Assembly: GCA_046050965.1 (NCBI GenBank) | Contig: JBJOPC010000339.1 | Span: 1-26,485, forward strand | Source: Verrucomicrobiota bacterium | GTDB taxonomy: Bacteria; Verrucomicrobiota; Verrucomicrobiia; Limisphaerales; JAFMIX01 | Direction: 5' to 3' | DNA: 26,485 nucleotides | Part shown: positions 625 through 25,347 of the stretch, piece after piece | Layout: each line of letters starts with the position of its first letter | How positions within the stretch are numbered: the first letter of the stretch is position 1 | Program-made: the position numbers and the translations under genes | The notes under the pieces: generated by a model | Seen by the model: only the letters and a program-made list of their open reading frames with translations | The model's database searches: none | Told to the model about the DNA's origin: nothing

Positions 625-632
625 CGCAAAGG

Positions 633-2034: not shown

Positions 2035-2043
2035 GCAATCGCC

Positions 2044-4254: not shown

Positions 4255-6276
4255 ATGCCACGTTTTTTTCTCCTGCTCGCCGCACTGCTGCTCGCGTTGC
4301 CCGTCAGTGCTGCTGACTCCACGCCTGCCGACGCCGCGCTTGCCGATTACTTCCACCACGAAACCGCCGCGCTCGCCGAACGCAGCCCCACGCCGATAAA
4401 AAATCCCGCCGACTGGCCGACGCAGCGTGCCGAGTTGCGCGCGCAATTGCAGGAGATGCTCGGCCTCACGCCGCTGCCCGCGCGCACGGACTTGCATGCG
4501 ACCGTCACCGGCGTGTTCACGAACGACGCGTTCACGATGGAAAAAATTTATTTTGAGGCGTCGCCCAAACTTTATTGCACGGCGAATCTTTTTATCCCGC
4601 GCGGCCTCACTAATCCCGCGCCGACGGTGCTTTACGAGTGCGGCCATTTTCGGCTGTTCACCAACGGCATCAGCTACGGCAACAAAGCCGCGTATCAACT
4701 CGACGGTGCGTGGTTCGCGCGTCACGGCTACGTCTGCCTCGTCACCGACACCTTGCTTGCGGGCGAAGTGCAAGGCACACACACCGGCACGCGCGACAAA
4801 GGTCAATGGTGGTGGAACTCACGCGGCTACACGCCAGCGGGCGTGGAAGCGTGGATTGGCATTCGCTCGCTCGACTATCTCTGCACACGACCGGAAGTGG
4901 ACACGAATCGCTTCGGCGTAACCGGCCATTCCGGCGGCGGCGCATATTCGTGGACCGTCACCGCACTCGACGACCGCATCAAAGTCGCCGCCCCGCTCGC
5001 AGGCATGGCCGACCTCACGAGTCACATTGACGACGGCGTGATTGACAGCCATTGCGACTGCAATTTTTTCCAAAACATCTACCGCTGGGATTTTCCGCAA
5101 CTCGCCGCACTCGCCGCGCCGCGTCCGCTGCTGCTCGGCGGCACGGACAACGACCGTTTGTTCAACCTGTCTAACACCGTTCGCCTCCACGAAAAAATCC
5201 GCCGCGTGTATGCGCAACTCGGCGCGACCAACAATTTTGCGCTCGCCCTCGCGCCCGGCCCGCACGATGAAGTGCCGGAACTGCGCCTCGCTGTGCTGCG
5301 CTGGTTCGATCGCCATCTCAAAGGCGTAACCAAGGCGAACGAGCAGCCCATCACCGTGGACGCCGTGAAATATTTTACGCCCGAGCAAGTCCGCGTGTTC
5401 GTCACGTTGCCGACAGACGCCATCAACACGAACATCGCCGAGACGTTTGAGCCAGATTTTCGTAGCCGCCGACGTGAGGAGGCGCAAACCAATTCTTCGA
5501 CGTCCGATAAAACAGGTCAGAGCCTTCTCACGTCGGCGGCTATGCCGGAGGAATTGCGCGCCACGCTACGCGCGAAAGTTTTCGGCGGTTGGCCGGACGA
5601 TACACTGCCGCTGGAACCGAAGCGCGTCTTTGCCACCGAACGCGACGGCGTGAAATTCAGCGCGTGGGATTTCGCCAGCCAGCACGACGTGCCGCTGCGA
5701 CTTTACCTGTTTGAAAATGCCAAAACTCCGGCGGCCAATGTTTCGCTCACAGTTTTGGACGCTGCCGGTTGGACGAACTGGTTCAGTTCTGTCAGCGCCA
5801 AATTCAGCAACGAGTTGGCAGATGAAATAAAGACTGTTGGTGGCCGCGCGTTGCCGCGCGCGGAGGCTGACCAGCAGGTCAGCCCTACCAGCGCAAAGAC
5901 CCTCGCCTTCCTCGCGCCGCGCGGCGTGGGTTTGATCGCGTGGTCGGGCGACGACAAGGCACTCACCAAAATCCGCCGCCGCTTCATGGCCGTGGGCGAG
6001 ACGCTTGACTCTATGCGCGTGTGGGACATCCGCCGCGCGATTCAAACCCTGCACTTCGTCCGCGACAGCGAAACTGCGACTGTTGAATTAAAAGCCGACG
6101 GCGCGATGGCCGTGAACGCGCTCTACGCCGCACTGTTCGAGCCGGGCGTAAAAAAACTTTCGCTCACCAACCTGCCCGCGTCGCAAATCACCGGGCCAGA
6201 TTATCTCGGCGTGTTGAAATACACCGACGTGCCGCAAGTGCTGGAAGCGGTGAAGCAAACCGCGCGCGTGGAGTAG
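4255..6276 (+). CDS. Secreted alpha/beta-hydrolase (acetyl-xylan-esterase / dienelactone-hydrolase-like, GHSGGG nucleophile elbow) with a large extra C-terminal domain
   Basis: Signal peptide MPRFFLLLAALLLALPVSAA. G-x-S-x-G motif TGHSGGGAYSW. Length 673 aa. The C-terminal ~300 aa resemble an esterase-family N-lobe (weak). Confidence 0.55.
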   Translation: MPRFFLLLAALLLALPVSAADSTPADAALADYFHHETAALAERSPTPIKNPADWPTQRAELRAQLQEMLGLTPLPARTDLHATVTGVFTNDAFTMEKIYFEASPKLYCTANLFIPRGLTNPAPTVLYECGHFRLFTNGISYGNKAAYQLDGAWFARHGYVCLVTDTLLAGEVQGTHTGTRDKGQWWWNSRGYTPAGVEAWIGIRSLDYLCTRPEVDTNRFGVTGHSGGGAYSWTVTALDDRIKVAAPLAGMADLTSHIDDGVIDSHCDCNFFQNIYRWDFPQLAALAAPRPLLLGGTDNDRLFNLSNTVRLHEKIRRVYAQLGATNNFALALAPGPHDEVPELRLAVLRWFDRHLKGVTKANEQPITVDAVKYFTPEQVRVFVTLPTDAINTNIAETFEPDFRSRRREEAQTNSSTSDKTGQSLLTSAAMPEELRATLRAKVFGGWPDDTLPLEPKRVFATERDGVKFSAWDFASQHDVPLRLYLFENAKTPAANVSLTVLDAAGWTNWFSSVSAKFSNELADEIKTVGGRALPRAEADQQVSPTSAKTLAFLAPRGVGLIAWSGDDKALTKIRRRFMAVGETLDSMRVWDIRRAIQTLHFVRDSETATVELKADGAMAVNALYAALFEPGVKKLSLTNLPASQITGPDYLGVLKYTDVPQVLEAVKQTARVE

Positions 6277-6403: not shown

Positions 6404-7930
<1,527 letters not shown>

Positions 7931-9322: not shown

Positions 9323-9997
9323 ATGTCCGCCAACATCGTCACCATCCGCGAACTCTCGAAGATTTATTTGCAGGGCGAGATCAATGTTACCGCGCTCAAC
9401 CGCGTGTCGCTGGATATCGCTGCGGGCGAGTTTCTCGCGCTCATGGGGCCGAGCGGTTCCGGCAAGTCCACGCTACTGCACATCCTCGCGGGCATTGACC
9501 GCCCCACGAGCGGCGAGTGCCGCGTGCAAGACGTGGACGTGACGCAGCTCAACGAATCCAAACTCGCCGACTGGCGCAATCGCAACGTGGGTTTTGTGTT
9601 CCAAACTTTCAATCTCATCCCGGTGCTGACCGCGCAGGAAAACGTGGAGTTGCCGCTGCTGCTCATGAAACTCTCGCGGCGCGAACGGCGCGACCGCGTG
9701 GCCGCCGCGCTCGGCCTCGTCGGCTTGGGCGACCGCGCGAAACATCTGCCGCGTCAACTTTCCGGCGGGCAAGAGCAGCGCGTGGCCATCGCCCGCGCGC
9801 TGGTGACGGATCCGACGCTCATCGTCGCGGACGAGCCGACGGGCAACTTGGATTCGCAGTCGGCAAACGACGTGTTGCGCGTGTTGCAGACCTTAAGCCG
9901 CGAATCGGGCAAGACGGTCATTATGGTCACGCATGACCCGAAGGCGGCGGCGTTCGCGAGCCGGCAGATTCACCTCGAAAAAGGAGAGCTGTGTTAG
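9323..9997 (+). CDS. ABC transporter ATP-binding protein (LolD/MacB/FtsE-like)
   Basis: Walker [13 protein letters not shown] signature [15 protein letters not shown], Walker [12 protein letters not shown]. Stop TAG 9995-9997. Confidence 0.85.
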
Positions 9998-10158
9998 CCA
10001 CAGATGGACACAGATGAAACACTGATAAGACCTCCGCAGATTGCACAGATTAACGCAGATTTTCTTTGAGATTTAATCTGCGTGAATCCGCGAAATCTGT
10101 GGACAAAATCTTCCCTCATCTGTGTTTCATCTGTGTTTCATCTGTGTCCATCTGTGGC
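9997..10158. mobile_element. MITE-like palindromic element, copy A (162 bp) with TIR GCCACAGATGGACACAGATGAAACA and TA flanks; inserted between the ABC ATPase stop and the permease start
   Basis: The left arm gccacagatggacacagatgaaaca ... cgcagat pairs with the right arm ...atctgcg... tgtttcatctgtgtttcatctgtgtccatctgtggc. CATCTGTG words recur with a 10-11 bp period. The element is flanked by TA on both sides; the left TA plus the first G of the element forms the TAG stop codon. Confidence 0.55.
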
Positions 10159-10170
10159 TAAATTTGTTTT

Positions 10171-12776: not shown

Positions 12777-12850
12777 AATTTTTTTGCGGGACAGGGATTT
12801 TGTATCCGAACCATTCGACGGAAGCGCGGAAAAAATGCTCCCGGAATTTT

Positions 12851-12917
12851 ATCCGCAGATTTCGCAGATGGCCGCAGATTAAAAACTCATCTGCGAAAAT
12901 CTGCGAAATCTGCGGAT
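12851..12917. repeat. 67-bp perfect-armed palindrome built from CGCAGAT words (core-only relative of the MITE-like family), between the pdxA stop and the downstream minus-strand gene
   Basis: atccgcagatttcgcagat (left) is the exact reverse complement of atctgcgaaatctgcggat (right). Inner gcagatt / aatctgc words match the central part of copy A. Confidence 0.5.
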
Positions 12918-12922
12918 GCAGT

Positions 12923-13927
12923 TCAGGCTTGCGCTGCCAGTCGCCGCGCCAGATTCAGCGCAGCAATCATGCTCGACGGACTCGCCACGCCGCGCCCCGC
13001 GATGTCGTAAGCCGTGCCGTGATCCGGCGAGGTGCGGACGAACGGCAGGCCGAGCGTCCAGTTGATGCCTTGCTCGAAGCCAATCATCTTCAGCGGCGCG
13101 AGGCCTTGGTCGTGATACATCGCCACCACGGCGTCGAAGTCGCCGCGAAACGCTTGGTAAAACAAAGTGTCCGCCGCGAGCGGGCCGACGAGGTCCACGC
13201 CGGTTTTTTTCAGCGCGCGGCAAACGGGCGCGATGAGTTTGATTTCTTCCGTGCCGATTTTTCCATCCTCGCCCGCGTGCGGGTTGAGGCCGCAGACGCC
13301 GACGTGGGCGCGTGGCAGACCAAGGTCGCGGCAAGCTTGCGCGGCGAGCGTGATGGCGAGGCGGATGTTTTGCGCCGTCAAACTTTGCGCGACGCGGCGA
13401 ATGGGAACGTGCGTGGTGGCGAGGGCGACACGGAGCCAGCGACCACGGTCGTCGCAGCCGAGCAGCATCATGGCGGTGCGCCGGGTGCGCGCGAGCTGCG
13501 AGAGAAATTCCGTTTGGCCGACGAAATTTTTTTGACCGCTGCGGATGATGGCGGCTTTGTTGACGGGCGCGGTGACGAGGGCGGAAAGTTTTTTCTGGAG
13601 GCAAAGTTTCGCGCCGAGTTCGAGCGCGGCCATGGCGGCGCGGGCGGCAGCGGGTGAGCCTTGGGAAATTTTCTCCGGCAACGCGGCGGCCCACGGCTGG
13701 ATGACTTGCAATTTTTTACGGCTGGCCCAACCGGAGAATTTTTCCAGCGGAAGTTTCAGCCGCAGTTGTTCGTTGAGTTGCTGGAGTTGGCGGAAATCGC
13801 CGAGCAGAATGTAGCGCGTGGCGTCGGTGCGTTTGCGCGCGGCGAGGGCTTGGAGACTGATTTCCGGGCCGATGCCGGTGGGGTCGCCGGTGGCGAGGCC
13901 GAGGGGCGGGGAGATGTGAGAGTTCAT
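12923..13927 (-). CDS. pdxA: 4-hydroxythreonine-4-phosphate dehydrogenase
   Basis: 334 aa with PdxA family signatures (GDPTGIGPEI, ...HVPIRRV..., GLNPHAGE, ...MYHDQGL...). Classic position downstream of surA. Confidence 0.85.
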   Translation of the reverse strand: MNSHISPPLGLATGDPTGIGPEISLQALAARKRTDATRYILLGDFRQLQQLNEQLRLKLPLEKFSGWASRKKLQVIQPWAAALPEKISQGSPAAARAAMAALELGAKLCLQKKLSALVTAPVNKAAIIRSGQKNFVGQTEFLSQLARTRRTAMMLLGCDDRGRWLRVALATTHVPIRRVAQSLTAQNIRLAITLAAQACRDLGLPRAHVGVCGLNPHAGEDGKIGTEEIKLIAPVCRALKKTGVDLVGPLAADTLFYQAFRGDFDAVVAMYHDQGLAPLKMIGFEQGINWTLGLPFVRTSPDHGTAYDIAGRGVASPSSMIAALNLARRLAAQA

Positions 13928-14979: not shown

Positions 14980-15102
14980 GCGATTGCCGCCAAGCGTAGG
15001 TGACGCGGGCGTTGGTGGTCAAGCGCGCCGCAGCCGCCGAGGAATGCGTGAGTGAAAACACACGCGTGCGCGAGTGCAAGCGGACGCGCTACAAATGCGA
15101 GC

Positions 15103-15130
15103 TTGCAATCTTTCCGACCTTGGCTACTTT
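15103..15130 (+). promoter_or_regulatory. Putative promoter for tRNA-Gly (TTGCAA, 16 nt spacer, TACTTT)
   Basis: Read directly, 18 nt upstream of the mature tRNA 5' end. Confidence 0.3.
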
Positions 15131-15147
15131 TTCCGCGCTTTACGGAG

Positions 15148-15223
15148 GCGAGCGTAGCTCAGTTGGTAGAGCATCTCGTTGCCAACGAGAATGTCGAGGG
15201 TTCGAATCCCTTCGCTCGCTCCA
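15148..15223 (+). tRNA. tRNA-Gly (anticodon GCC), CCA encoded
   Basis: Folded by hand. Acceptor GCGAGCG/CGCTCGC, D-arm GCTC-AGTTGGTA-GAGC, anticodon stem TCTCG/CGAGA with loop TTGCCAA, T-arm GAGGG-TTCGAAT-CCCTT, discriminator T and CCA. Confidence 0.85.
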
Positions 15224-15686
15224 TTTTCCCCGGCATTTTCAGATAGCTCTCACGCGAAGATTGCCACAGACGCAAAGGTTTTCCAGAAATCCGATTTTTC
15301 TTTGCGCCCTTCGCGCGCTTTGCGTGAGGGAAAACCATCTTCCGCTTCAACTCTTTTGGCCTGCTCCTGTGGACGTTACGCGGCAGCCCATTGACGGTTC
15401 GCCAGACCGTGAGAGTATCGCTCCGCAGCAGCCGAAGTCTGGCTTCCTTCCAGAAGTCAGACGCGGGAGACCCAAAATCCCCAGCAATGGGGACGGGGCG
15501 CACGAAGTCAGGCAACTGATTTCAAGGCCACTTTCAAGGCCAAGCCCGACAGCTAATCTCGCAGGCATTTGGAAGGGCGAGCCTCTGACCTGCGAAGTCC
15601 GCAGTCTTCAAGTTCACCCCAACAGTAACGCGTCGCGTTGGTAGCGACGGTCATAGACCGCCGCTACAGCGCGACCACAACGGAGA

Positions 15687-17486
15687 ATGGGTATGAAAAC
15701 AAACATGGTCATGTTGGCAGTCGGTGAACTCGGTCTGCACGTCGGTTGGTTCTGGTGGCTCACGGGCTTCGTCGCGCTCGTATTGCTCTCCAGTCTGGTG
15801 CTGATTCGCGAACGGCAGGTGGGCATCGTGGTGAAACGCTTCGGCTCGCGTTCGCTCGCGCCCGGACACCTCATCGCGCTTGGCGGCGAAGCAGGTTTGC
15901 AAGCGGACACCCTCGCGCCCGGTTTGCACTTCGGTTATTGGCCGTGGCAATTCCGCGTCATCAAAGTTCCCGTCACCGTCGTCGAGCAAGGGGAAATTGC
16001 GCTCGTCATGGCGGCGGACGGCGCGGCGATGCCATCCGAACACATCCTCGGCAAACGCGTAGAGTGCGACGACTTCCAAGACGCGCGCAAATTCCTCGCG
16101 GGCGGCGGCGAGAAAGGACGCCAACTCGGCATCCTCACCGCTGGCACATACCGCATCAACACCTCGCAATTCACCATCATCACGTCGGCGACGGCGCACG
16201 CGCACGGCATGATGCCGGAGCAATTGCTGTTGCATCGCGTGGAGTCCGACATGGTGGGCGTTGTCACCACGCTCGACGGCCAGCCGATTCCCGCCGGTGA
16301 AATCGCCGGGCCGACCGTCACCGCACACGACAGCTTCCAGAACGCGCAGGCGTTTCTCGACGGCGGTGGCAGCCGTGGCTTGCAGGAGCAAATCCTGTTG
16401 TCCGGCGCGTGGAATTTGAATCCGTGGTTCGTGCAGGTGGAGCAAGTCCCGATGGTGCAGATTCCCATCGGCTATGTCGGCGTCGTCATTTCGTTCGTCG
16501 GCAAGGCGCACGAAGACGTCAGTGGCGCGGACTTCAAACACGGCGACCTCGTCAACGCCGGTCACAAAGGCGTGTGGGTCACGCCGCTGTATCCCGGCAA
16601 ACATCCGCTCAACACGCGCGTGATGAAAGTTGAACTCGTGCCGACCACGAACATCGTGCTCAACTGGGCGAATCGCACCGAGGCGCATAATTATGACTCG
16701 AAATTGCAATCCATCACCGTGCGTTCGCGCGACGGATTTGCGTTCAACCTCGACGTGTCGCAGATCATCCACGTCGGCGCGCTCGATGCGCCGAAGGTAA
16801 TTTCCCGCGTCGGCTCGATGCAAAATCTCGTGGATCACGTTTTGCAACCGACCGTCGGAAATTATTTCCGCAACTCCGCGCAAGACTTCACCGTGCTCGA
16901 CTTCCTCGGCGCACGTAGCCAACGGCAAGTCGAAGCGGCGGCGCATATCCGCGAAGCCATCGGCGCGTATGACGTGCAAGCGATTGACACACTCATCGGC
17001 GACATCAATCCGCCCGCCGAACTGATGACCACGCAAACCGATCGCAAGATTGCCGAGGAACAGCGCAAGACGTTCGAGGTGCAGGAAGCCGCGCAGATTC
17101 AGCGGCAACAACTCGTGCGCCAGACCTCGCTCGCCGACATCCAACAACAAGTCGTCGGCGCAGAACAAGGCGTGAACATTGCCGAGTTGAAAGCCAACGC
17201 CAGTGTGAAACACGCGACCGGCGAAGCTGAAGCCACGCGCCTCCGCGCCCTCGGCGAGGCCGAAGCCATCCGCGCTACCGGTGATGCCAAAGCGCAGGCC
17301 TATCGCGCGGGCGTCGAGTCCATCGGCACGCAGGGCTACACCGTCATGCAGCTCATGCAAATCATCGGCGAGCGCAACGTCCGTATCGTCCCCGACGTTT
17401 CCGTGACCGGCCAAGCCGGCGGCAATGGAATCGTGGACGGCTTGCTCGGCGTGATGCTAAAAGAACAAACTAAAAAAGCTGCGTGA
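15687..17486 (+). CDS. Flotillin-like SPFH/band-7 membrane protein (FloT/YqiK-like)
   Basis: N-terminal TM helix, then an SPFH start ERQVGIVVKRFG. C-terminal alanine/glutamate-rich coiled-coil repeats (ATGEAEATRLRALGEAEAIRATGDAKAQAYRAG). About 600 aa, as for bacterial flotillins. Confidence 0.7.
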   Translation: MGMKTNMVMLAVGELGLHVGWFWWLTGFVALVLLSSLVLIRERQVGIVVKRFGSRSLAPGHLIALGGEAGLQADTLAPGLHFGYWPWQFRVIKVPVTVVEQGEIALVMAADGAAMPSEHILGKRVECDDFQDARKFLAGGGEKGRQLGILTAGTYRINTSQFTIITSATAHAHGMMPEQLLLHRVESDMVGVVTTLDGQPIPAGEIAGPTVTAHDSFQNAQAFLDGGGSRGLQEQILLSGAWNLNPWFVQVEQVPMVQIPIGYVGVVISFVGKAHEDVSGADFKHGDLVNAGHKGVWVTPLYPGKHPLNTRVMKVELVPTTNIVLNWANRTEAHNYDSKLQSITVRSRDGFAFNLDVSQIIHVGALDAPKVISRVGSMQNLVDHVLQPTVGNYFRNSAQDFTVLDFLGARSQRQVEAAAHIREAIGAYDVQAIDTLIGDINPPAELMTTQTDRKIAEEQRKTFEVQEAAQIQRQQLVRQTSLADIQQQVVGAEQGVNIAELKANASVKHATGEAEATRLRALGEAEAIRATGDAKAQAYRAGVESIGTQGYTVMQLMQIIGERNVRIVPDVSVTGQAGGNGIVDGLLGVMLKEQTKKAA

Positions 17487-17515: not shown

Positions 17516-17746
17516 ATGAACTCAAATTCCAAAACTTGTCCCGAGTGTGACTGCCCAAATCTTTATTCGACTATTACTGGTTCGGGCGTCAGCCGCGGAC
17601 TGGTGGCGCTGCCGGAACTGGGCGGTTTATTTCGAGCCGCCAGAATGCGAGTCATCGTTTGCGCCGATTGCGGACTGACTCGTTTTTACGCCGACCCGGA
17701 TGCGCGTGAAAAATTACCGACCTCCAACCGCTGGCAACGCCTATGA
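17516..17746 (+). CDS. Small zinc-ribbon protein (CPECDC ... CADCG)
   Basis: 76 aa with two C-x2-C pairs. Its stop overlaps the next start (ATGA). Confidence 0.4.
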   Translation: MNSNSKTCPECDCPNLYSTITGSGVSRGLVALPELGGLFRAARMRVIVCADCGLTRFYADPDAREKLPTSNRWQRL

Positions 17747-18174
17747 AAAATTACCAACACACCCAAAGCAGCCCGCTCATCGTTGGCATCACGGTCGGAA
17801 CGTTTTTCATTCTGTTTGCGCTCGGCGTGTTTGTGCTGAAGCCATTCCTCATTACTTCGCCGCTCCTATTGATCGCGGGCTGGCTATTTCACTCGCTGAC
17901 GATTGAGATTACCGACCGCGAACTCCGTTGGCATTTTGGCATCGGCCTCATCCGCAAACGCGTTGCCCTCGCCGACATCGCGAGCGTGAAAATTGTCCGC
18001 ACGAATTTCTGCGAAGGTTGGGGCATCCACTGGAGTCGCTTCGGCTGGCTTTACAACGTCTCCGGCTACGACGCCATCGCCGTCACGCTGCACAGCGGCA
18101 AGCGCTTCGCCCTCGGCACGGATGAACCTCAAGTTCTCGCCGCGCAACTCAATCAAACTCTTCAGCAAGGTTAA
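17743..18174 (+). CDS. Membrane protein with two N-terminal TM helices and a C-terminal bacterial PH-like (bPH/YdbS-like) domain
   Basis: The hydrophobic N-terminus and the domain assignment are by pattern only. The gene is translationally coupled to the upstream gene. Confidence 0.4.
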   Translation: MKNYQHTQSSPLIVGITVGTFFILFALGVFVLKPFLITSPLLLIAGWLFHSLTIEITDRELRWHFGIGLIRKRVALADIASVKIVRTNFCEGWGIHWSRFGWLYNVSGYDAIAVTLHSGKRFALGTDEPQVLAAQLNQTLQQG

Positions 18175-18177
18175 CCT

Positions 18178-20142
18178 ATGGAAAATAAAACTAACTGGTT
18201 CAAGCGTATCTTCATCGGGCAAGCGCGCAGCCTCACCGAGAAAAATTTGTTCCACAAAATCTCTCTTGTCGCCGTGCTCGCGTGGGTCGGGCTGGGCGCG
18301 GATGGATTGTCGTCGTCATGCTATGGCCCGGAGGAAACGTTCAAGGCGTTGGGCGCGCACATCGCGCTCGCACCATTCATCGCGCTCGCGTGCGTGGCGA
18401 CCATCGCCATCATCTGCGTAAGTTACGCGCAGATCATCGAATTGTTTCCGGGCGGCGGCGGCGGTTATCTCGTCGCGAGCAAGCTGCTCTCGCCGTCGGC
18501 AGGCGTGGTCTCGGGCTGCGCGCTGCTGGTGGATTACGTGCTGACCATCGCTATCTCCATTGCGAGCGGGGCAGACGCCTTGTTCTCGCTGCTACCGGTG
18601 GCGTGGCAACCGTGGAAACTTCCATTCGCGCTGGCGGGAACGGCGTTGCTCACGCTGCTCAACTTGCGCGGCGTGAAAGAATCCGTGCTGCTGTGGTCCC
18701 CGATATTTTTTCTGTTCATCGCCACGCACGGGTTCGGAATTCTTTACGCTATCAGCACGCACTTTGGCACGATGCCGGAAATCTTTTCGCAGACTACTGC
18801 CGGCGTGAGCGCGGCGCACTCGCAACTCGGCTGGCTTGGCGTGCTGCTTTTATTATTGCGCGCTTACAGTGTAGGTGCGGGCACTTACACGGGCATCGAG
18901 GCAGTGAGCAACGGCCTACCAATCTTGCGCGAGCCGCGCGCGACCACCGGCAAACGCACGATGCTCTACATGGGCGCATCACTCGCGCTGACGGTCGGCG
19001 GTTTGCTCGCGGCTTACTTGTTGTTCCACGTCGCGCCGCAGGACGGCAAGACTTTGAACGCCGTGTTGTTCGAGCAGATGACGAGTGCGTGGCCGAGTTG
19101 GTTGAGTAAAGGTTTTATTTCCGCCGCCATGATTTCCGCGTCGGCGTTGCTATTCATCGCGGCGCAAGCGGGCTTCCTCGACGGCCCACGCGTGTTGGCA
19201 AACATGGCGCTCGACCGCTGGTTTCCCACACGCTTCGCAACCTTGAGCGACCGCTTCGTGGCGCAGAACGGGATTTTGCTCATGGGCGGGGCGGCGTTGC
19301 TGGTGTTGCTCGGCACACGCGGTGCGGTGGGGTTGCTCGTGGTGCTTTACAGCATCAACGTCTTCATCACGTTCTCGCTTTCGCAGCTCGGCATGGTGCG
19401 GCACTGGTGGCAAGAACGCGCCGTGAACCCGCGCTGGTTGCGCAAGCTCGCCATCAACGTCGTTGGCCTCGCGCTAACCAGCTTCATCCTCGTGACGCTG
19501 ACAGTGGAAAAGTTTTTTGAAGGCGGCTGGGTGACGCTGCTTGTCACCGCCATTTTTGTCGGCGCGGCGTTTCTCATCCGGCGGCATTACGACCAAACCA
19601 AGCGCGACCTCGCGCGGTTGGATTCGCTCATGCCGGTGTTCGCCGATGAAAATTCTGTGGCAACAAATCCATCAGCCTGCGATGCGAACGCCAAGACTGC
19701 CGTCGTGTTCGTGAACGGTTTCAACGGACTCGGCGTTCACACCGTGCTCGCGATCGTGCGGATGTTTCCCGGCGTGTTCCGCAATTTCGTGTTTGTCCAT
19801 GTGGGCGTGGTGGACGCTGGAAATTTCAAAGGCGCAAGTGAATTGGAAAACCTCCGCGCCCACATCGCGACCGAATCAGGCCACTATGTGGCGTCCATGC
19901 AGCGGCGCGGTTTTTACGCAGAGGCCATCACCGAAGCCAGCACTGACGTGGTGGAAACGGCGAGCCGACAGGCGACGGCGTTGGCGCGGCGCTTTCCGCA
20001 GGCGATGTTCTTCAGCGGCCAGCTCGTCTTCGCAAAAGACTCACGGCTGACGCGGCTGCTGCATAACTTCGCGGTGTTCGCCTTGCAGCGGGAATTCTTC
20101 CGCCAAGGGCTGGCCTTTTTGATTCTGCCCATTCGAGTGTGA
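18178..20142 (+). CDS. kimA: KimA-family K+ transporter (APC superfamily) with C-terminal cytoplasmic domain
   Basis: Strong recollection-based similarity to B. subtilis KimA (YdaO). KRIFIGQARSL matches KRFLIGKPLKS. SYAQIIELFPGGGGGYLVASK...LLVDYVLTIAISIASGADAL matches SYRQIIYAYPQGGGAYIVSK...LLVDYILTVAVSISAGTDAI. LLNLRGVKES and TGIEAVSNGLP are also shared. Confidence 0.75.
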   Translation: MENKTNWFKRIFIGQARSLTEKNLFHKISLVAVLAWVGLGADGLSSSCYGPEETFKALGAHIALAPFIALACVATIAIICVSYAQIIELFPGGGGGYLVASKLLSPSAGVVSGCALLVDYVLTIAISIASGADALFSLLPVAWQPWKLPFALAGTALLTLLNLRGVKESVLLWSPIFFLFIATHGFGILYAISTHFGTMPEIFSQTTAGVSAAHSQLGWLGVLLLLLRAYSVGAGTYTGIEAVSNGLPILREPRATTGKRTMLYMGASLALTVGGLLAAYLLFHVAPQDGKTLNAVLFEQMTSAWPSWLSKGFISAAMISASALLFIAAQAGFLDGPRVLANMALDRWFPTRFATLSDRFVAQNGILLMGGAALLVLLGTRGAVGLLVVLYSINVFITFSLSQLGMVRHWWQERAVNPRWLRKLAINVVGLALTSFILVTLTVEKFFEGGWVTLLVTAIFVGAAFLIRRHYDQTKRDLARLDSLMPVFADENSVATNPSACDANAKTAVVFVNGFNGLGVHTVLAIVRMFPGVFRNFVFVHVGVVDAGNFKGASELENLRAHIATESGHYVASMQRRGFYAEAITEASTDVVETASRQATALARRFPQAMFFSGQLVFAKDSRLTRLLHNFAVFALQREFFRQGLAFLILPIRV

Positions 20143-20231: not shown

Positions 20232-21329
20232 ATGACCAAGGAACTTTCTATTTTCGCCACGCGTCTCCGCGACGCCATCGCCTCCGGCTTTCGCCCGGAA
20301 AATTTCCCCGCGCTCGCGCTCGAACTCTTCACGCTGCAATTCCAGCACAACCTCGCCTATCAAAAAATCTGCCGCGCCCGCAGCCTCACGCCTGCGAACG
20401 TGACCGACTGGACGCAGGTTCCCGCCGTGCCGACCTCCGCGTTCAAGGAACTCGAACTGACCGCGCTCGCGCTATCCGAGCGCACCGCCGTTTTCCACTC
20501 CAGCGGCACGACCGAACAAAAACCCAGCCGCCATTTCCACAACGCCGACTCGCTCGCCCTCTACGAAAAATCTTTGTGGGCGGCGTTTGACCAAATCTTT
20601 CAACTTTCAACTTTCAACTTTCAACTTTGCGTTCTGACGCCACCAGCGAATCAAGTCCCCCACTCCTCGCTCGTGCATATGTTTGAGGTCGTGCGAAAAA
20701 AACTCGCGCAGCCGCCAGAAGTTTTCCTCGGTCACCTCGCCGACGACGGAACGTGGCAACTTGATTTCCCCGCCGCGCTCGCCGCCTTGTCCTCCAACTC
20801 AAAACTCAAAACTCAAAACTCAAAACTAATTCTCGGCACCGCTTTTTCCTTCGTTCACCTCCTCGACTTCCTCGCAGAAAAAAATCTGCGCCTCGCGCTC
20901 CCGCCCGGCTCGCGCGTGCTGGAAACCGGCGGCTACAAAAACCGTTCGCGCTCGATGCCCAAGCCCGAGTTGCACGCGCTCATAGCCGACCGCCTTGGCG
21001 TTGCCCGCGAAAACATCGTCTGCGAATACGGCATGAGCGAGTTGAGTTCGCAAGCGTATGAAACGAGAATTCAGAATTCAGAATCCAGAATCCAGAATCG
21101 TGCGTTCCAATTTCCACCATGGGCAAGAGCGCAGATTGTTTCGCCCGAAACTGGCCGCGCTGTGGCCGATGGCGAAACGGGTTTGCTCCGCCTCTGCGAT
21201 TTGGCGAATGTGTTTTCCGTGCAAGCCATCCAAACCGAAGACCTCGCCATTCGACGTGGCGAAGGTTTTGAACTCCTTGGCCGCGCGCAACTCGCCGAGC
21301 CGCGCGGTTGCTCGCTCATGACCGCGTAA
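20232..21329 (+). CDS. luxE: LuxE-family acyl-protein synthetase homolog (adenylate-forming); alternative start 20199
   Basis: Motifs align with Vibrio LuxE. FHSSGTTEQK matches FTSSGTNGLK. LETGGYKN matches ITGGGWKS. PPWARAQIVSPETGRAVADGETGLL matches [25 protein letters not shown]. The C-terminal PRGCSLM matches QKGCALSL. Confidence 0.75.
   Translation: MTKELSIFATRLRDAIASGFRPENFPALALELFTLQFQHNLAYQKICRARSLTPANVTDWTQVPAVPTSAFKELELTALALSERTAVFHSSGTTEQKPSRHFHNADSLALYEKSLWAAFDQIFQLSTFNFQLCVLTPPANQVPHSSLVHMFEVVRKKLAQPPEVFLGHLADDGTWQLDFPAALAALSSNSKLKTQNSKLILGTAFSFVHLLDFLAEKNLRLALPPGSRVLETGGYKNRSRSMPKPELHALIADRLGVARENIVCEYGMSELSSQAYETRIQNSESRIQNRAFQFPPWARAQIVSPETGRAVADGETGLLRLCDLANVFSVQAIQTEDLAIRRGEGFELLGRAQLAEPRGCSLMTA
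20597..20628. repeat. Intragenic heptanucleotide tandem repeat (CTTTCAA)x4.6
   Basis: ctttcaa ctttcaa ctttcaa ctttcaa cttt, perfect, inside the luxE-like coding sequence (encodes IFQLSTFNFQL). Confidence 0.9.
20808..20838. repeat. Intragenic heptanucleotide tandem repeat (CTCAAAA)x4.4
   Basis: ctcaaaa x4 then cta, perfect, inside the luxE-like coding sequence (encodes NSKLKTQNSKL). Confidence 0.9.
21065..21099. repeat. Intragenic heptanucleotide tandem repeat (CAGAATY)x5
   Basis: gagaatt cagaatt cagaatc cagaatc cagaatc, inside the luxE-like coding sequence (encodes ETRIQNSESRIQNR). Confidence 0.9.
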
Positions 21330-21330
21330 A

Positions 21331-22035
21331 ATGAAACGTCGCGCCATCATTTACACCGCGCTAGTGCTGCTCCTCGCGGCAACGGGCTGGTTCGTGAAAC
21401 GCCAGCTTTACGCCGACGCTTGGACGATTGAAGAACGGCTCGCACAATTTGGACCGACGTCGCGCGCGCGGCTCCAAACTTGGTTCGCTCAAGCGGGGCT
21501 GACTTACCCGCCCGCGCAACTGATGTTCGTGGGACTCAAAGCCGAACGCCTTCTGCAAATCTACGCGCCCGCTTCCGATGGTCGCTGGCGGTTCGTCCAC
21601 GCCTGCGCAATTCTCGGCGCGAGCGGCGTCGCCGGCCCGAAGTTGCGCGAGGGTGATTTCCAAGTGCCAGAGGGCATCTACGCCATTGACCTGCTGAACC
21701 CGAATAGCCGCTACCAAATTTCCATGCAGGTCAGCTACCCAAACACCTTCGACCGGGAACACGCCGCCGCCGAAGGTCGGCGGGAACTCGGCGGCGAAAT
21801 CATGATTCACGGCGGCCACACCTCGGCGGGTTGCCTCGCCGTCGGCGATGAAGCTTCGGCGGATTTGTTCGTGCTCGCCGCAGACACAGGTTTGTCCAAC
21901 ATCACGGTCGTGCTCGCGCCCGTGGATTTCCGCGCTGGCAAATCCGTGACGAACGCCATGCCCGCGTGGACGCCCGCGCTCTACGACCAAATCAAAATGC
22001 GCCTAACCGAGCTGCCGCTGCCGCCAAATAATTAA
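21331..22035 (+). CDS. YafK/DpaA-family L,D-transpeptidase-like protein (YkuD catalytic domain), N-terminal signal/anchor
   Basis: Recollection-based alignment to E. coli YafK. GPKLREGDFQVPEGIYAI matches GPKQRQGDFKSPEGFYSV. NSRYQISMQVSYPNTFDREH matches DSRYYKAINIGFPNAYDRAH. The catalytic IMIHGGHTSAGCLAV matches LMIHGDCVSIGCYAM. The start is 1 nt after the luxE-like stop. Confidence 0.7.
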   Translation: MKRRAIIYTALVLLLAATGWFVKRQLYADAWTIEERLAQFGPTSRARLQTWFAQAGLTYPPAQLMFVGLKAERLLQIYAPASDGRWRFVHACAILGASGVAGPKLREGDFQVPEGIYAIDLLNPNSRYQISMQVSYPNTFDREHAAAEGRRELGGEIMIHGGHTSAGCLAVGDEASADLFVLAADTGLSNITVVLAPVDFRAGKSVTNAMPAWTPALYDQIKMRLTELPLPPNN

Positions 22036-22172
22036 CCACCGATGCACACAGATAAACACAGATGCCCAGGCCGCGGATTGCAACGATTTGCTCGGTTTCA
22101 ATCCGTGTTAATCCGTGAAATCCGGCTCAAAAAGTTTTTCCCCATCTGTGTTCATCTGTGTCCATCTGTGGC
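22036..22172. mobile_element. MITE-like palindromic element, copy C (137 bp, more degenerate arms: CCACCGATGCACACAGATAAACACAGATG ... CATCTGTGTTCATCTGTGTCCATCTGTGGC)
   Basis: It begins immediately after the TAA stop of the yafK-like gene and ends 9 nt before the MFS ATG. There are three CAGATG-type words per arm at 10-bp spacing. Confidence 0.5.
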
Positions 22173-22181
22173 AAAAAAAAT

Positions 22182-23471
22182 ATGAGCGCCACCGCTCAAC
22201 ACAAGACCCGCACGCTTTGGCTGCTCGGCGCGCTGCACACGTTCACGCATATTTACAACGTCGCGTTGCTGCCGCTTTACCTGCTCATCCAGCGCGACCT
22301 TCACCTCGCGGGCGTCGGCCAAGCCACGTCGCTCGTCACCGTGCTGATGCTTTCGTATTTCGTGCCGAGCTACTGGATGGGAATTCTCGCGGACAAATTC
22401 AGCCGCAAAAAGCTCCTCGCGTTTGGCCTCGCGCTCAACGGCGCGGCGTTCGTCGCGCTCGCGTTCGCGCCGAACTACGCGTGGGCCGTGGCCGCGTGTG
22501 CGGCGGCTGGATTGGGCGGAAGTTTTTATCATCCGCCCGCCACGGCGATGATCGCGCGGCTGTTCCCGGAAAATACCGGACGCGCGTTCGGCCTCGTGGG
22601 TATCGGCGCGGGACTGGGATTTTGCATCGGCCCACTCTTCAGCGGTTGGCGCGCGGGGATGCTCGAAGCGGCGCACGGCGCGGCAGCGTGGCGCGAACCG
22701 GTTTTGGAACTAGGAATTCTTGGCGTGGCGATGGCCGCGCTGTTCGCATGGCTGGCGGATGAAGAAAAAGTGCTGCCGACTTGCAGTCGGCAGGCGTCAG
22801 CCACGGTCGCACCCGAACTGCCGACTGCAAGTCGGCAGCGCGTTGAAAAACTTTTTCCGACGAAAACGCTCTACGCCTTTTTCTTCGCCGCCGCGTTTGC
22901 ATTTGGCTTGCGCGATTTCGCGGGTGCAGCGATGGGCAGCCTTGGCTCGTTGTTCCTGCAAAAGGCGCGCGGGTTCAGCACGGCGGACGCGGGCATTGCG
23001 CTCGCTTGTCTAAACCTCGTGAGCGCCATCGGCAATCCGCTGTTCGGTCGCTTCAGCGACGGCGGACGCAAACGCTGGCTCGCCGCGCTGCTCGTGTTGT
23101 CCGCGCTGCTCGTCGCCGTATTCCCGCACGCGCCGGTGCGCGCGACGATTCCGCTGCTCGCGGCATATGGCTTTTTCTTCATGCCCACGTTTCCCGTCGT
23201 CGAAGCGTTGCTCATGCAGTCCGTGCCGGACGCCGTGCGCGGACGCATCTACGGGATGTTCATCACCGTCGGCGGACTCGTCGGGCAACTCGCGCATTGG
23301 CTCGCCGGCGAAGCGGTGAAGCGCATGGGCGATGGCGCGCAGCATACCGAAAATTATTTCCCGCTCTACGCCACGCTCGCCGCGCTGCTGCTGCTCACCA
23401 CGCTCGGCCTGCCGTGCTTGAACGCCATCGCCAAACGTGAGCAATCGGCAATCGGCAATCCTAAATCGTAA
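22182..23471 (+). CDS. MFS transporter
   Basis: About 430 aa and 12 predicted TM segments, with a generic MFS pattern. The start is placed at ATG 22182 (MSATAQHK). The longer supplied ORF start at 22158 lies inside the palindromic element. Confidence 0.7.
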   Translation: MSATAQHKTRTLWLLGALHTFTHIYNVALLPLYLLIQRDLHLAGVGQATSLVTVLMLSYFVPSYWMGILADKFSRKKLLAFGLALNGAAFVALAFAPNYAWAVAACAAAGLGGSFYHPPATAMIARLFPENTGRAFGLVGIGAGLGFCIGPLFSGWRAGMLEAAHGAAAWREPVLELGILGVAMAALFAWLADEEKVLPTCSRQASATVAPELPTASRQRVEKLFPTKTLYAFFFAAAFAFGLRDFAGAAMGSLGSLFLQKARGFSTADAGIALACLNLVSAIGNPLFGRFSDGGRKRWLAALLVLSALLVAVFPHAPVRATIPLLAAYGFFFMPTFPVVEALLMQSVPDAVRGRIYGMFITVGGLVGQLAHWLAGEAVKRMGDGAQHTENYFPLYATLAALLLLTTLGLPCLNAIAKREQSAIGNPKS

Positions 23472-23476
23472 ATCTC
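23442..23476. repeat. Heptanucleotide periodic repeat (CAATCGG CAATCGG CAATCCT AAATCGT AAATCTC) spanning the MFS stop codon and abutting the luxC-like ATG
   Basis: Read directly. It encodes the MFS C-terminus ...SAIGNPKS and the 5-nt intergenic spacer. Confidence 0.7.
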
Positions 23477-24832
23477 ATGCATTTGCCCAACCATTTTCTC
23501 GCCGACGCGCCCGACGTTCCCGTGACGACGGAAATTCTCATCGAGACGTGCCGCAACCTGCGCCGCAACCGCGAGCGTTACCTTGTCGTGCAGAAAACGG
23601 AATCCCTCGTCGCCTTGCTATGCGAAGTGGCAAGCGAATGGCGTCATCCGGAAAATAAATTCCGCAAGCTCGCGCTCGCCGACGGTCCGGCGGCTACCGG
23701 CTTTTCCCGCGCCACGCTTGAGCGTGGATTGGACGGCTTGTTCGCGCAGTTCACCCCGGAGAATTTCCACGCGCTGCTCGTCCAAGAATTCGGCGACGCC
23801 GCGCGTCTAGACAAGTTCACGCGCGCCGACGGCGACGCGAAGTCCGCCATGGTCGTTACGCCGGAACTGCTCGTGCACGTCTGCGCGGGCAACCTGCCGA
23901 ACCCCGCCATCATGAGCCTCGCGTTCGGTTTGCTGCTACGCTCGGCGCAGTTCGTGAAGTGCGCGAGCGGCGCAAGCTGGCTGCCGCGCTTGTTCGCGCA
24001 CTCGCTGCATGAGGCCGACCCGCATCTCGGTCGCTGTTTTGAAATCGCCGAGTGGCGCGGCGGTGAAACGGCGTTGGAAGAATACATTTTTGCTGAAGCC
24101 GATTGCGTCACGGCCACGGGCGGCGACGAGGCGTTGGCGGCGATTCGCGCCCGCGTTCCCGTTGCGAAAAAGTTTGTGGGCTACGGGCATCGGTTGAGTT
24201 TTGGTTTCATCAGCGGCGAGCAATTGACCGAAGCCGACGCGCCGCAACTCGCCGCCCGCGCAGCGGACGACGTAACTGCGTGGAATCAGCAAGGTTGTTT
24301 GTCCCCGCACGTTTTTTACATCGAAGACAAGGGCGCGGTGTCGGCGGAAAAATTCGCCGCGTTGCTCGCCGCCGAGTTGGAACGGCGCGAAACCACCGAG
24401 CCGCGTGGCGAAATTTCCGTGACTGAAGCCGCGACCATCGCCACGCGCCGCGAGATTTACGAAATTCGCGCCGCGTCCGCGCCCGAAGCCACGCGCATCT
24501 GGCACAGCGCTGGTTCGACGGCTTGGACGGTGGTGTTCGAGAGCGAACCACGGTTTCAGGCGTCGTGCTTGAACCGGTTTGTTTATGTCAAAGCGGTGGG
24601 CGCGTTCGCGGAAGTTTTGCCGGCAGTGGATGAATTGCGCGGCAAGGTTTCGACCGTGGGCGTGGCGGCGAACGCGAGCAAGCTGCCCGCGCTCGCGCTG
24701 CAACTTGCGCGCTGGGGCGTCACGCGGATTTGCCCGCTCGGCCAGATGCAAAACCCGCCGCTCGCGTGGCGGCACGACGGGCGACCGGCGCTCAACGAAC
24801 TCGTCACTTGGACTGACTGGGAAACCATTTAG
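23477..24832 (+). CDS. luxC: LuxC-family acyl-CoA reductase homolog (aldehyde-dehydrogenase-like)
   Basis: 451 aa. VCAGNLPNPAIMSLAFGLLLRSAQFVKCASG resembles the LuxC ...LAGNVP...IIKTSS region. Candidate catalytic Cys in WNQQGCLSP. Stop TAG 24830-24832. Confidence 0.7.
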   Translation: MHLPNHFLADAPDVPVTTEILIETCRNLRRNRERYLVVQKTESLVALLCEVASEWRHPENKFRKLALADGPAATGFSRATLERGLDGLFAQFTPENFHALLVQEFGDAARLDKFTRADGDAKSAMVVTPELLVHVCAGNLPNPAIMSLAFGLLLRSAQFVKCASGASWLPRLFAHSLHEADPHLGRCFEIAEWRGGETALEEYIFAEADCVTATGGDEALAAIRARVPVAKKFVGYGHRLSFGFISGEQLTEADAPQLAARAADDVTAWNQQGCLSPHVFYIEDKGAVSAEKFAALLAAELERRETTEPRGEISVTEAATIATRREIYEIRAASAPEATRIWHSAGSTAWTVVFESEPRFQASCLNRFVYVKAVGAFAEVLPAVDELRGKVSTVGVAANASKLPALALQLARWGVTRICPLGQMQNPPLAWRHDGRPALNELVTWTDWETI

Positions 24833-24971
24833 CCACAGATGAAACACGGATTGAACACAGATGAAAACGACCTCCGCAGATGACACAGCTTCACGCAGAT
24901 TAAATTCAATCGGCGAAAATCTGTGTCATCTGCGGACAAAATCCGTGTTTCATCCGTGTTCAATCCGTGGC
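24832..24971. mobile_element. MITE-like palindromic element, copy D (140 bp; TIR GCCACAGATGAAACACGGATTGAACACAGATG / CATCCGTGTTCAATCCGTGGC) with TA/TTA flanks
   Basis: The first G completes the TAG stop of the luxC-like gene. The element ends 10 nt before the queD ATG. The central part cgcagatgacacag...ctgtgtcatctgcgg is itself a palindrome. Confidence 0.55.
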
Positions 24972-24981
24972 TTAAAAAATT

Positions 24982-25347
24982 ATGAAAATGGAACTACGAA
25001 AATCGTTTCAGTTTGAGGCGGCACATCTGTTGCCGAAATTACCGAAAGCGCACAAGTGCCGTCGGCTGCACGGCCACAGCTTCAAGGTGGAGATTGCCGT
25101 CACCGGCGAGTGCGACCCGGAGCTGGGTTGGGTGATGGACTATGCGGACATCAAAGCGGCGTTCAAACCGCTCTGGGAAAAACTCGATCACCGCTACCTC
25201 AACGAAGTCGCGGGCTTGGAAAATCCCACGAGCGAAGCCGTGGCGGTGTGGATTTGGCGCAAGCTTAAGCCGAAGCTGCCGTTGCTCACGGAAGTCGTCG
25301 TGGCCGAGACCTGCACCGCGCGCGCGGTGTATCGCGGGGAGCCTTGA
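24982..25347 (+). CDS. queD: 6-carboxy-5,6,7,8-tetrahydropterin synthase (6-pyruvoyl-tetrahydropterin synthase family)
   Basis: 121 aa. Zinc-binding C-x3-HGH motif (CRRLHGHSF). Conserved EAAHLLP near the N-terminus and LNEV... in the second half. Confidence 0.8.
   Translation: MKMELRKSFQFEAAHLLPKLPKAHKCRRLHGHSFKVEIAVTGECDPELGWVMDYADIKAAFKPLWEKLDHRYLNEVAGLENPTSEAVAVWIWRKLKPKLPLLTEVVVAETCTARAVYRGEP

Follow-up and report, generated by a model that had tools for sequence, protein, structure and literature searches.

Organisation of the locus

We analysed a 26,485-nucleotide (nt) stretch of DNA from a bacterium of the order Limisphaerales, phylum Verrucomicrobiota (contig JBJOPC010000339.1; hereafter the window), which carries homologues of the bioluminescence enzymes LuxE and LuxC in one gene cluster with a YkuD-fold peptidase, a major facilitator superfamily (MFS) transporter and queD (Table 1). 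The cluster represents an expanded, lineage-specific version of an operon, luxE-luxC-queD, that belongs to the core features of Limisphaerales. As to what the cluster does, we tentatively favour an ATP- and NAD(P)H-dependent reductase that would convert a small, polar, probably heteroaromatic and cofactor-derived carboxylic acid into its aldehyde, over a fatty-aldehyde or envelope module.

The original prediction for this DNA had described the four genes from luxE to luxC as a non-luminous cassette of a composition known from no described pathway. The four co-directional genes, their linkage and their tight packing were borne out by the open reading frames (ORFs) and the sequence, but the unit was one gene short, queD also belonging to it. 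Between luxE and the YkuD gene there is 1 nt (21330) and between the MFS gene and luxC there are 5 nt (23472-23476), and the 146-nt gap between the YkuD and MFS genes (22036-22181) holds the inverted repeat that had been noticed there, copy C of a palindromic element. An alternative in-frame start of the MFS gene (GTG at 22158) is located within this element. Recurrence of the four-gene linkage in relatives had been set beforehand as a check, and it does recur, as luxE-YkuD-MFS-luxC in loci L005, L028, L083 and L086, with the partial arrangement YkuD-MFS-luxC in L006 and L062. Absence of luxA, luxB and luxD had also been noted, and we found none of these families among the Pfam matches of the large ORFs of the window and of 83 related loci; our literature search likewise turned up no pathway of this composition. 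The window LuxE is identical (100% identity) to the deposited protein P0415, and the close homologues of LuxC are all named Limisphaerales, Pedosphaera, Verrucomicrobia subdivision 3 or the like.

Table 1. Positions of the genes and repeats of the window operon, and of the thiamin pyrophosphate (TPP) riboswitches found upstream of luxE-luxC in relatives.
Sequence	Feature	Position	Strand	Evidence or remark
Window	luxE-like acyl-protein synthetase, 365 aa	20232-21329	+	ATG start; PF04443
Window	YkuD/YafK/Pgp2/Csd6-like periplasmic L,D-peptidase (predicted), optional insert	21331-22035	+	PF03734; PDB 8ikr match
Window	palindromic repeat element copy C, YkuD/MFS gap	22036-22171	.	inverted repeat; RNA fold
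Window	MFS transporter, 429 aa counted from ATG, optional insert	22182-23471	+	MFS_1
Window	luxC-like acyl-thioester reductase, 451 aa	23477-24832	+	PF05893
Window	palindromic repeat element copy D, luxC/queD gap	24834-24969	.	inverted repeats; direct-repeat families shared with the 9994-10161 copy
Window	queD, 6-carboxy-5,6,7,8-tetrahydropterin synthase, conserved third operon gene	24982-25347	+	TIGR03367
Window	heptamer tract CTTTCAA x4.6, LuxE loop site S3	20597-20628	+	in frame; encodes QLSTFNFQL
Window	heptamer tract AACTCAA x4.6, LuxE loop site S5	20796-20827	+	in frame; encodes NSKLKTQNSKL
Window	heptamer tract AGAATYC x4.9, LuxE loop site S6	21066-21099	+	in frame; encodes RIQNSESRIQN
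Window	heptamer tract GCAATCG x2.9, 3' end of MFS gene	23441-23460	+	
L175	TPP riboswitch	3536-3640		upstream of luxE-luxC
L178 (Pantoea dispersa)	TPP riboswitch	6637-6766		upstream of luxE-luxC
L179	TPP riboswitch	1390-1497		upstream of luxE-luxC
L180	TPP riboswitch	6469-6601		upstream of luxE-luxC
L182	TPP riboswitches	4534-4642 and 4721-4830		upstream of luxE-luxC
L183	TPP riboswitch	5628-5755		upstream of luxE-luxC
L185	TPP riboswitch	5605-5734		upstream of luxE-luxC

LuxE and LuxC retain the residues of an acyl relay

Profile searches accepted both lux assignments, LuxE scoring 66.7 bits against a cut-off of 24.9 for PF04443 (residues 28-362) and LuxC 245.5 bits against a cut-off of 21 for PF05893. 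Both proteins also match the chains of the cryo-EM LuxC-LuxE complex of Photobacterium phosphoreum (PDB 7xc6; phmmer E-values of 1.7e-9 for LuxE and 1.3e-11 for LuxC), the alignment of LuxE extending again across residues 28-362. In LuxE, K236 (GGYK), R351 and the C-terminal RGC360SL pair with K238, R355 and KGC364xL of the P. phosphoreum enzyme; in LuxC, C274 (NQQGC274LS) aligns with the catalytic Cys and H433-D434 with His442/Asp443. The LuxE motifs are invariant across 41 homologues, and the catalytic residues of both enzymes are unchanged in the clade and shared by the distant homologues examined. These are the residues of the fatty acid reductase relay, namely the Lys/Arg pair and C-terminal Cys of LuxE, and the Cys and His-Asp of LuxC (PMC9157457). 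On the strength of this sharing, the predicted chemistry, in which an acid and ATP yield acyl-AMP, acyl-S-LuxE, acyl-S-LuxC and, with NAD(P)H, an aldehyde, is well founded.

The window pair and the P. phosphoreum pair belong to the same two families, with the same catalytic residues and the same implied relay, but the window differs from the luminous systems in the absence of luxA, luxB and luxD, in having luxE before luxC, in having queD as operon partner and in the length of LuxC. In the alignment with the 7xc6 chain of 477 residues, the window LuxC pairs as far as chain residue 444 and stops 5 residues later, and it lacks the C-terminal oligomerisation segment (P460-P488 in P. phosphoreum). 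In P. phosphoreum the C-terminal element closes a 40-Å L-shaped hydrophobic acyl cleft (PMC9157457), and the window LuxC would fall about 40 residues short of the part that forms this cleft. Both proteins score far below the equivalogs of the bioluminescence enzymes, with 57.2 bits against 550 for LuxE (NF052244) and 67.6 bits against 750 for LuxC (NF052251).

The family is large: we found 357 luxC relatives in GTDB species genomes and 3318 clusters at 50% identity (E-values up to 0.001), and these textbook bioluminescence enzymes have thousands of non-luminous homologues. In the literature found, LuxC is the sole experimentally characterised member of its group. Two lineages have LuxC paralogues in which the catalytic Cys is replaced (GP or GG in place of GC; L172 6001-7380, proteins P0135 and P0131), which are probable non-catalytic derivatives. 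No luxE was identified within ±6 kb in L172, where two adjacent ORFs have no match to the LuxE Pfam family.

luxE-luxC-queD is a core operon of Limisphaerales

For 80 species-representative Limisphaerales genomes, we determined the architecture of the locus by ORF and BLAST analysis and from the neighbourhoods of LuxC. queD lies directly 3' of luxC in 72/80 species. The plain trio luxE-luxC-queD accounts for 60 species, and the others have luxE-luxC (6 species), luxE-MFS-luxC-queD (4), the window arrangement luxE-YkuD-MFS-luxC-queD (3), luxC-queD with luxE cut off by a contig end (3), luxE-MFS-luxC (2), luxE-YkuD-luxC-queD (1) and YkuD-MFS-luxC-queD (1). Some of the architectures that lack queD are loci cut by a contig end. 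The stop codon of luxC and the start codon of queD overlap by 4 nt in 16 loci, and 66 of 77 loci have the two genes no more than 150 nt apart; in the window the space between them is occupied by copy D of the palindromic element. The window queD product is a canonical QueD, with 108.3 bits against a cut-off of 89.25 for TIGR03367, and is 61% identical to E. coli QueD over its full length, with the CxxxHGH motif (C26RRLHGH) and D69-H70 aligned.

The trio is most commonly set in the order FtsA-FtsZ, MetRS, luxE-luxC-queD, MscS, aminotransferase-MutY and RNase HII, and is kept where the upstream flank differs (MetRS, MiaE, an epimerase, RuvC or an APC permease). Adjacency of luxC and queD also survives at 43% LuxC identity in L173, a lineage sister to Limisphaerales, where ClpC is followed by luxC-queD-PrxQ. 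A promoter and terminator scan gave counts no different from those of shuffled sequence.

The enzyme system itself is known; its operon context, with queD and the optional YkuD and MFS genes, is previously undescribed, and our literature search found nothing relevant on LuxC or LuxE together with Verrucomicrobia, QueD or 7-formyl-7-deazaguanine. For Limisphaerales, which are abundant in soil and freshwater and of which few members have been cultured, this singles out a queD-linked core operon that could conceal a new branch in the making of queuosine or folate precursors.

The YkuD and MFS genes are optional inserts

The YkuD gene is present in 5 and the MFS gene in 10 of the 80 species. They occur independently of each other and always between luxE and luxC, and all four combinations are found (luxE-luxC, luxE-YkuD-luxC, luxE-MFS-luxC and luxE-YkuD-MFS-luxC); eight further metagenomic contigs also have luxE-YkuD-luxC-queD. 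In the tree of LuxC the operons bearing either gene are scattered, being concentrated in deep branches with some nested in derived ones. Both genes are dispensable operon inserts, independently gained or lost.

The YkuD protein reaches PF03734 at the border (23.5 bits vs a cut-off of 23.4), and matches the solved structure PDB 8ikr with an E-value of 4.7e-15 and with the catalytic IHG...GC168 aligned. H160 and C168 are invariant in 8 orthologues, and the protein has an N-terminal membrane anchor, in whose place some orthologues have a lipobox. The description of this protein as a YafK/DpaA-type, L,D-transpeptidase-like enzyme stands for the fold and the catalytic pair but not for orthology to DpaA, since the score for the LdtF_DpaA_YafK equivalog (NF040599) is 74.2 bits against 365 and covers the catalytic core only. 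With YafK/DpaA (LdtF) of E. coli, Pgp2 of Campylobacter and Csd6 of Helicobacter it has in common the YkuD fold, the His/Cys motif and the predicted periplasmic location, but a place within a luxE/luxC operon is not described for those enzymes. A metagenome scan for the YkuD subfamily of the window returned 80 loci (42-61% identity). luxE and/or luxC adjoin the gene in 8/80 of them and an MFS gene in 2/80, and the remaining loci are without luxE, luxC or MFS genes; about 20 have several kb of flank on both sides and show no conserved neighbour. Judged from these contexts, the YkuD protein is a widespread, stand-alone, probably periplasmic enzyme that some Limisphaerales have captured into the operon.

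The assignment of the transporter was confirmed by the MFS_1 family (138.7 bits against a cut-off of 33.4; residues 28-376, both six-helix halves). No MFS subfamily cut-off of NCBIfam is reached, the best weak similarity being to monocarboxylate and organic-anion carriers (SfMCT, 65 bits). As a peptidoglycan-recycling permease it was rejected, there being no specific similarity to E. coli AmpG. The part of the gene that encodes the central cytoplasmic loop contains a small in-frame palindrome pair (CTGCCGACTTGCAGTCGGCAG) at 22767-22844 (+), with 27-nt arms that are 93% complementary, and the reading frame remains open through it.

Cultured relatives lie in thiamin regulons

Cultured relatives were found by tblastn of PLSDB, and we examined nine luxE-luxC operons with 27-40% LuxC identity. 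The cultured relatives are 31-39% (LuxE) and 27-36% (LuxC) identical to the window proteins and share all catalytic motifs. Directly 5' of luxE-luxC, 7 of the 9 operons have TPP riboswitches that reach the Rfam gathering score (54.3), and this places the cultured relatives in the thiamin regulon. Their scores are 71.7 bits in P. dispersa, 67.6 in Lactiplantibacillus plantarum, 59.6 in Azospirillum lipoferum, 70.8 in A. brasilense, 85 and 72.9 in tandem in Niallia taxi, 63.8 in Pseudomonas silvicola and 63.1 in L175. The P. dispersa operon reads luxE-luxC followed by a short-chain dehydrogenase/reductase (SDR), and on a plasmid of L. plantarum the same three genes follow a xanthine/uracil-family permease. 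In A. lipoferum and Priestia megaterium, the latter without a riboswitch, an ATP-binding cassette (ABC) transporter with an NMT1/THI5-like binding protein stands between luxC and the SDR gene. L175 (40% LuxC identity) has a fusion of a zinc-dependent alcohol dehydrogenase (ADH) to LuxE, then luxC and an ABC transporter with an NMT1-type binding protein. In L088 (41% LuxC identity) the order is ThiE, PfkB kinase, a small ORF, a thioesterase and luxC, with ThiE 1.7 kb upstream of luxC, and an archaeal contig has luxE-luxC-DUF2284-enoyl-CoA hydratase.

Since their cultured relatives are switched by TPP riboswitches, cofactor salvage is a likelier role for these enzymes than lipid or cell-wall remodelling. 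Moreover, the nucleobase-type and NMT1/THI5-type transporters and the SDR of the relatives point to small polar heteroaromatic acids as substrates, and not to fatty acids. For the TPP-regulated operons the gene content suggests that LuxE and LuxC could provide the activation and the reduction of the acid that thiamin-pyrimidine salvage has been missing; the SDR or ADH would complete the reduction to the alcohol, and the ThiY-like and nucleobase-type transporters would point to the pyrimidine moiety. This bears on OarX, which PMC11223231 presents as an orphan SDR under a TPP riboswitch that occasionally clusters with an 'acyl-CoA synthetase', and for which it proposes salvage of carboxyl derivatives of thiamin, that is, the pyrimidine acid (PCA), thiazole acetic acid and thiamin acetic acid. 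According to the same paper, Corynebacterium glutamicum ATCC 14067, chosen for its oarX-fmnO operon, was unable to use PCA. A luxE/luxC pair is not described for the strain in the text consulted (PMC11223231) and is presumably absent from it, which is a possible reason why it failed on the pyrimidine acid. If our reading is true, the members under TPP riboswitches would supply activation and reduction in the salvage of PCA to hydroxymethylpyrimidine (HMP), upstream of OarX, and the relatives would offer a concrete answer on the role of oarX, a question about 20 years old by the account in PMC11223231.

The TPP-regulated operons, the nearest cultured homologues (LuxE 31-39% and LuxC 30-36% identical), share with the window clade the order luxE then luxC and a dedicated operon transporter. 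The window clade differs from them in having neither the TPP riboswitch nor an SDR or ADH for the step from aldehyde to alcohol, in having an MFS transporter in place of the ABC or NCS2 one, in the optional YkuD gene and in queD at the 3' end. We found no TPP riboswitch in the window, even at E-values up to 1, or in 11 other Limisphaerales loci, and homologues of ThiE, NMT1-type binding proteins, SDR and ADH are not recurrent near the Limisphaerales cassettes.

In P. dispersa (L178, 1-6561) another operon lies just upstream of the riboswitch and its luxE-luxC-SDR unit, with genes for a peptide ABC transporter, for M20 and Xaa-Pro peptidases and for the D-Ala-D-Ala dipeptidase DdpX; the presence of these cell-wall-peptide genes next to luxE/luxC is probably coincidental.

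A candidate reductase for heteroaromatic cofactor acids

In the mechanism that we propose, LuxE would adenylate the carboxylic acid with ATP and bind its acyl group in a thioester to Cys360 at the flexible C-terminus, from which the acyl group would pass to Cys274 of LuxC, to be reduced with NAD(P)H and released as the free aldehyde. The MFS protein, where present, would most plausibly import the acid, in parallel to the ABC and nucleobase permeases of the relatives, and the YkuD-fold peptidase would be an optional passenger in the operon. With no riboswitch and no alcohol-forming step in this clade, and with queD joined to the operon, the substrate may be an acid derived from thiamin, or else one of the pterin or 7-deazaguanine acids belonging to the QueD pathway. 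Taken one by one, none of the substrates is probable: a thiamin-derived acid is conceivable, and both an acid of the QueD pathway (6-carboxytetrahydropterin or 7-carboxy-7-deazaguanine) and an aliphatic or fatty acid we regard as unlikely, what remains of the likelihood falling to some other substrate.

The same net chemistry, from acid, ATP and NADPH to aldehyde through a covalent thioester, is carried out by the single-chain carboxylic acid reductases (CARs) of Nocardia and Mycobacterium, which take aromatic and heteroaromatic acids. Their architecture is unrelated, since CARs use a phosphopantetheine arm and an SDR-type reductase domain, whereas the window has the Cys of the LuxE tail and a separate reductase of aldehyde dehydrogenase fold. 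The locus and its relatives offer a testable non-lipid role for LuxE and LuxC, the re-reduction of oxidised, carboxylated cofactor fragments driven by ATP and NADPH; if this is true, the non-luminous LuxE/LuxC pairs would be a reductase family for heteroaromatic cofactor acids.

Several observations weigh against a heteroaromatic-acid reductase. The cassette encodes no enzyme that would consume the aldehyde, and the link of the YkuD gene to reductase chemistry is unexplained. Riboswitches of any kind are absent from the window and the 11 other Limisphaerales loci, so that a direct tie to thiamin or preQ1 is lacking, and the function of the TPP-regulated luxE-luxC operons is itself putative. 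Moreover, identity to these homologues is low, and specificity may differ. The linkage to queD could be inherited housekeeping synteny, the MetRS, MscS, MutY and RNase HII flanks being kept in 30-57% of loci. Queuosine genes lie near luxC in 2-3 independent cases among about 13 lineages (Limisphaerales with L173, L174 with QueE and L175 with QueF), and these few cases give weak cross-lineage support for a queuosine link. The AlphaFold model of LuxE (41 homologues; mean predicted local distance difference test, pLDDT, 59.9; predicted template modelling score, pTM, 0.38) is too poor for analysis of the pocket or the loops.

Alternative explanations

The original prediction had inferred an envelope-remodelling or lipid-signal module. 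In such a module LuxE and LuxC would make a long- or medium-chain fatty aldehyde, which would lead to an alcohol, a wax, an ether lipid or a signal, while the MFS protein exports it and the YkuD enzyme remodels the wall. The only biochemically characterised members of both families do reduce myristic acid (PMC9157457), the catalytic residues are common with those of the luminous enzymes, and where the YkuD and MFS genes occur, they stand in tight translational arrangement with luxE and luxC. We nevertheless consider a fatty-acid or envelope role unlikely. The equivalog scores fall far under their cut-offs, the hydrophobic-cleft element is missing from LuxC, and the window is without a luxD-type acyltransferase, acyl carrier protein, FabG or wax synthase. 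Furthermore, the proposed exporter and wall enzyme are absent from about 85-90% of the species that keep the operon, the YkuD subfamily (42-57% identity) is mostly unlinked to luxE/luxC, and the near-invariant partner is queD. The nearest cultured homologues belong to thiamin regulons with nucleobase- and pyrimidine-type transporters, relatives that point to heteroaromatic acids.

Alternatively, LuxE and LuxC could reduce a carboxylated intermediate of the QueD pathway, in an undescribed pterin or 7-deazapurine step. One option is that 7-carboxy-7-deazaguanine is reduced to 7-formyl-7-deazaguanine, which a transamination would turn into preQ1, bypassing QueC and QueF; the other is that 6-carboxytetrahydropterin gives rise by reduction to a 6-formyl- or 6-hydroxymethyl-pterin, so that the folate pterin would be reached without FolB. 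The near-invariance of queD as the gene 3' of luxC, the stop codon of one overlapping the start codon of the other, and the survival of the pair in L173 favour such a step, and a luxE-luxC core that is common to the order fits biosynthesis better than opportunistic salvage. The candidate acids would also bear their carboxyl on an aminopyrimidine-type ring, a feature in common with the pyrimidine acid of thiamin to which the relatives point. In L174 (42% LuxC identity), a co-directional run at 586-3002 comprises QueE (TIGR04349, 297.8 bits), an 80-aa ORF and a class III aminotransferase; two opposite-strand genes come next, then luxE-luxC, which the run precedes by about 2 kb, and directly after them the nuo operon. 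This puts QueE and the aminotransferase at a distance of 2-4 kb from the pair. An aminotransferase adjoining QueE is unusual and would suit the step from aldehyde to preQ1. L175 has QueF 2 kb from its operon, in divergent orientation, but this QueF is itself TPP-regulated.

On the other hand, our literature search found no such reaction described, and neither the window nor the 11 other Limisphaerales loci contain a preQ1 riboswitch. A tblastn search with E. coli QueA, Tgt, QueC, QueE and QueF against 1.7 Mb of loci found none of them in the Limisphaerales loci, and no further que or fol genes turned up there. The neighbourhood statistics are weak once all of the roughly 13 lineages are counted. 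A phage search with LuxC gave one weak partial match and no sign of a link to phage 7-deazaguanine. All in all, a QueD-pathway step seems to us rather improbable.

We give somewhat less credence still to the view that there is no common pathway, and that the locus is a housekeeping operon of convenience in which the YkuD, MFS and queD genes merely share a transcript with unrelated luxE and luxC. The YkuD family is usually found alone and in varied contexts, unrelated housekeeping genes flank the region in most species, and small repeat elements divide some of the genes, all of which would be compatible with such an operon. However, in several deep branches the inserts fall without exception into the interval from luxE to luxC, where codons overlap or nearly abut, a transporter recurs beside luxE/luxC in unrelated phyla, and the conservation of luxC-queD exceeds that of the surrounding synteny.

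Heptamer tracts in luxE are in-frame loop sequence

Heptamer tracts had been noted within luxE and at the MFS/luxC junction and are present in both (Table 1). Apart from the three in luxE, the whole window has no perfect tract with a period of 4-12 and 3 or more copies. We counted perfect 7-nt tracts of at least 3 copies in 83 Limisphaerales loci and found 55 in luxE (97 kb scanned) and 25 in flanking sequence (898 kb), an enrichment of about 20-fold, with 2 in luxC (117 kb) and none in queD (29 kb). The units vary by species, yet the tracts occupy the same 5-6 hypervariable sites of the LuxE alignment; examples in relatives are found at L024 6747-6782, L028 5761-5795 and L064 7716-7741. Many of these sites carry, instead of tracts, heptamer-array hairpins or palindromes resembling repetitive extragenic palindromes (REP) or miniature inverted-repeat transposable elements (MITE), also in frame. 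The tract peptides substitute loop residues with little net change in length compared with the cultured homologues, S6 being about 5 residues longer.

The same tracts had been taken to suggest stochastically switchable expression. In relatives at 71-84% identity the tract lengths are equal and only point substitutions are seen (QLSTFNFQL is kept, and NSKLKTQNSKL compares with NSKLNTQNSKL), and luxE is in frame in 82/83 loci. The sole frame change, in L066 (7711-7747), is a shift across its TCCATCC x3 tract and reflects either slippage in a rare allele or a mistake in the assembly. The tracts behave as tolerated in-frame loop sequence, like ordinary coding sequence, and not as a switch: a phase-variable locus, in which slippage toggles luxE and, through polarity, the operon, would have in its favour three perfect tracts within one 1.1-kb gene, their enrichment in luxE and a frame change exactly at a tract, but is very improbable given the constant lengths, the low copy number (3-5 units), the nearly uniform reading frame and the many sites with hairpin or REP-like inserts rather than pure tracts.

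Heterocystous cyanobacteria have short tandemly repeated repetitive (STRR) heptamers and small dispersed repeats, both intergenic and in frame, and the window resembles them in its 7-nt tandem units and small palindromes. It differs in the phylum and in the units, which are unrelated, and its clade concentrates the tracts in a single gene across the order. In-frame heptamer and hairpin inserts focused on one enzyme are a curious case of tolerance to repeat elements in coding sequence.

Palindromic elements and other features of the window

The arms of copy C (22036-22064 and 22143-22171) are 29 nt long and 90% complementary, and its RNA fold has an energy of -54.3 kcal/mol (z = -6.2 vs shuffles). 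Copy C matches no Rfam family and has no terminator-type U-run, and an Rfam scan of the cassette at E-values up to 1 gave only spurious miRNA-like matches on hairpins. Sister palindromes lie in the window at 9994-10161 and 12841-12927, besides copy D. The family is made of sub-repeats of about 10 nt, CACAGATGAA / TTCATCTGTG, plus AATCCGTG variants, and is REP/MITE-like; in translation the palindromes yield ICVHLW-type peptides of spurious ORFs.

Upstream of the operon, both ARAGORN and Rfam call a tRNA-Gly (GCC) at 15148-15223 (+), and a cyclic di-AMP (c-di-AMP) riboswitch (RF00379; 54.6 bits vs a gathering score of 38) lies at 15420-15582 (+). A listed ORF at 15000-15644 overlaps the two and was rejected as spurious. 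The riboswitch is 5' of a Band 7/SPFH gene (15687-17486), a gene for a 143-aa membrane protein (17743-18174) and an APC-family permease gene (18178-20142; 654 aa, C-terminal domain present), an architecture that resembles K+ importers of the KimA/YdaO type; this operon stops 90 nt before luxE. Elsewhere in the window, about seven 21-nt tandem repeats (ACGGGAGTTCGGCTGGGGTTC-like) occupy 1884-2030, just 3' of a Kdo-transferase gene (2044-3426, minus strand).

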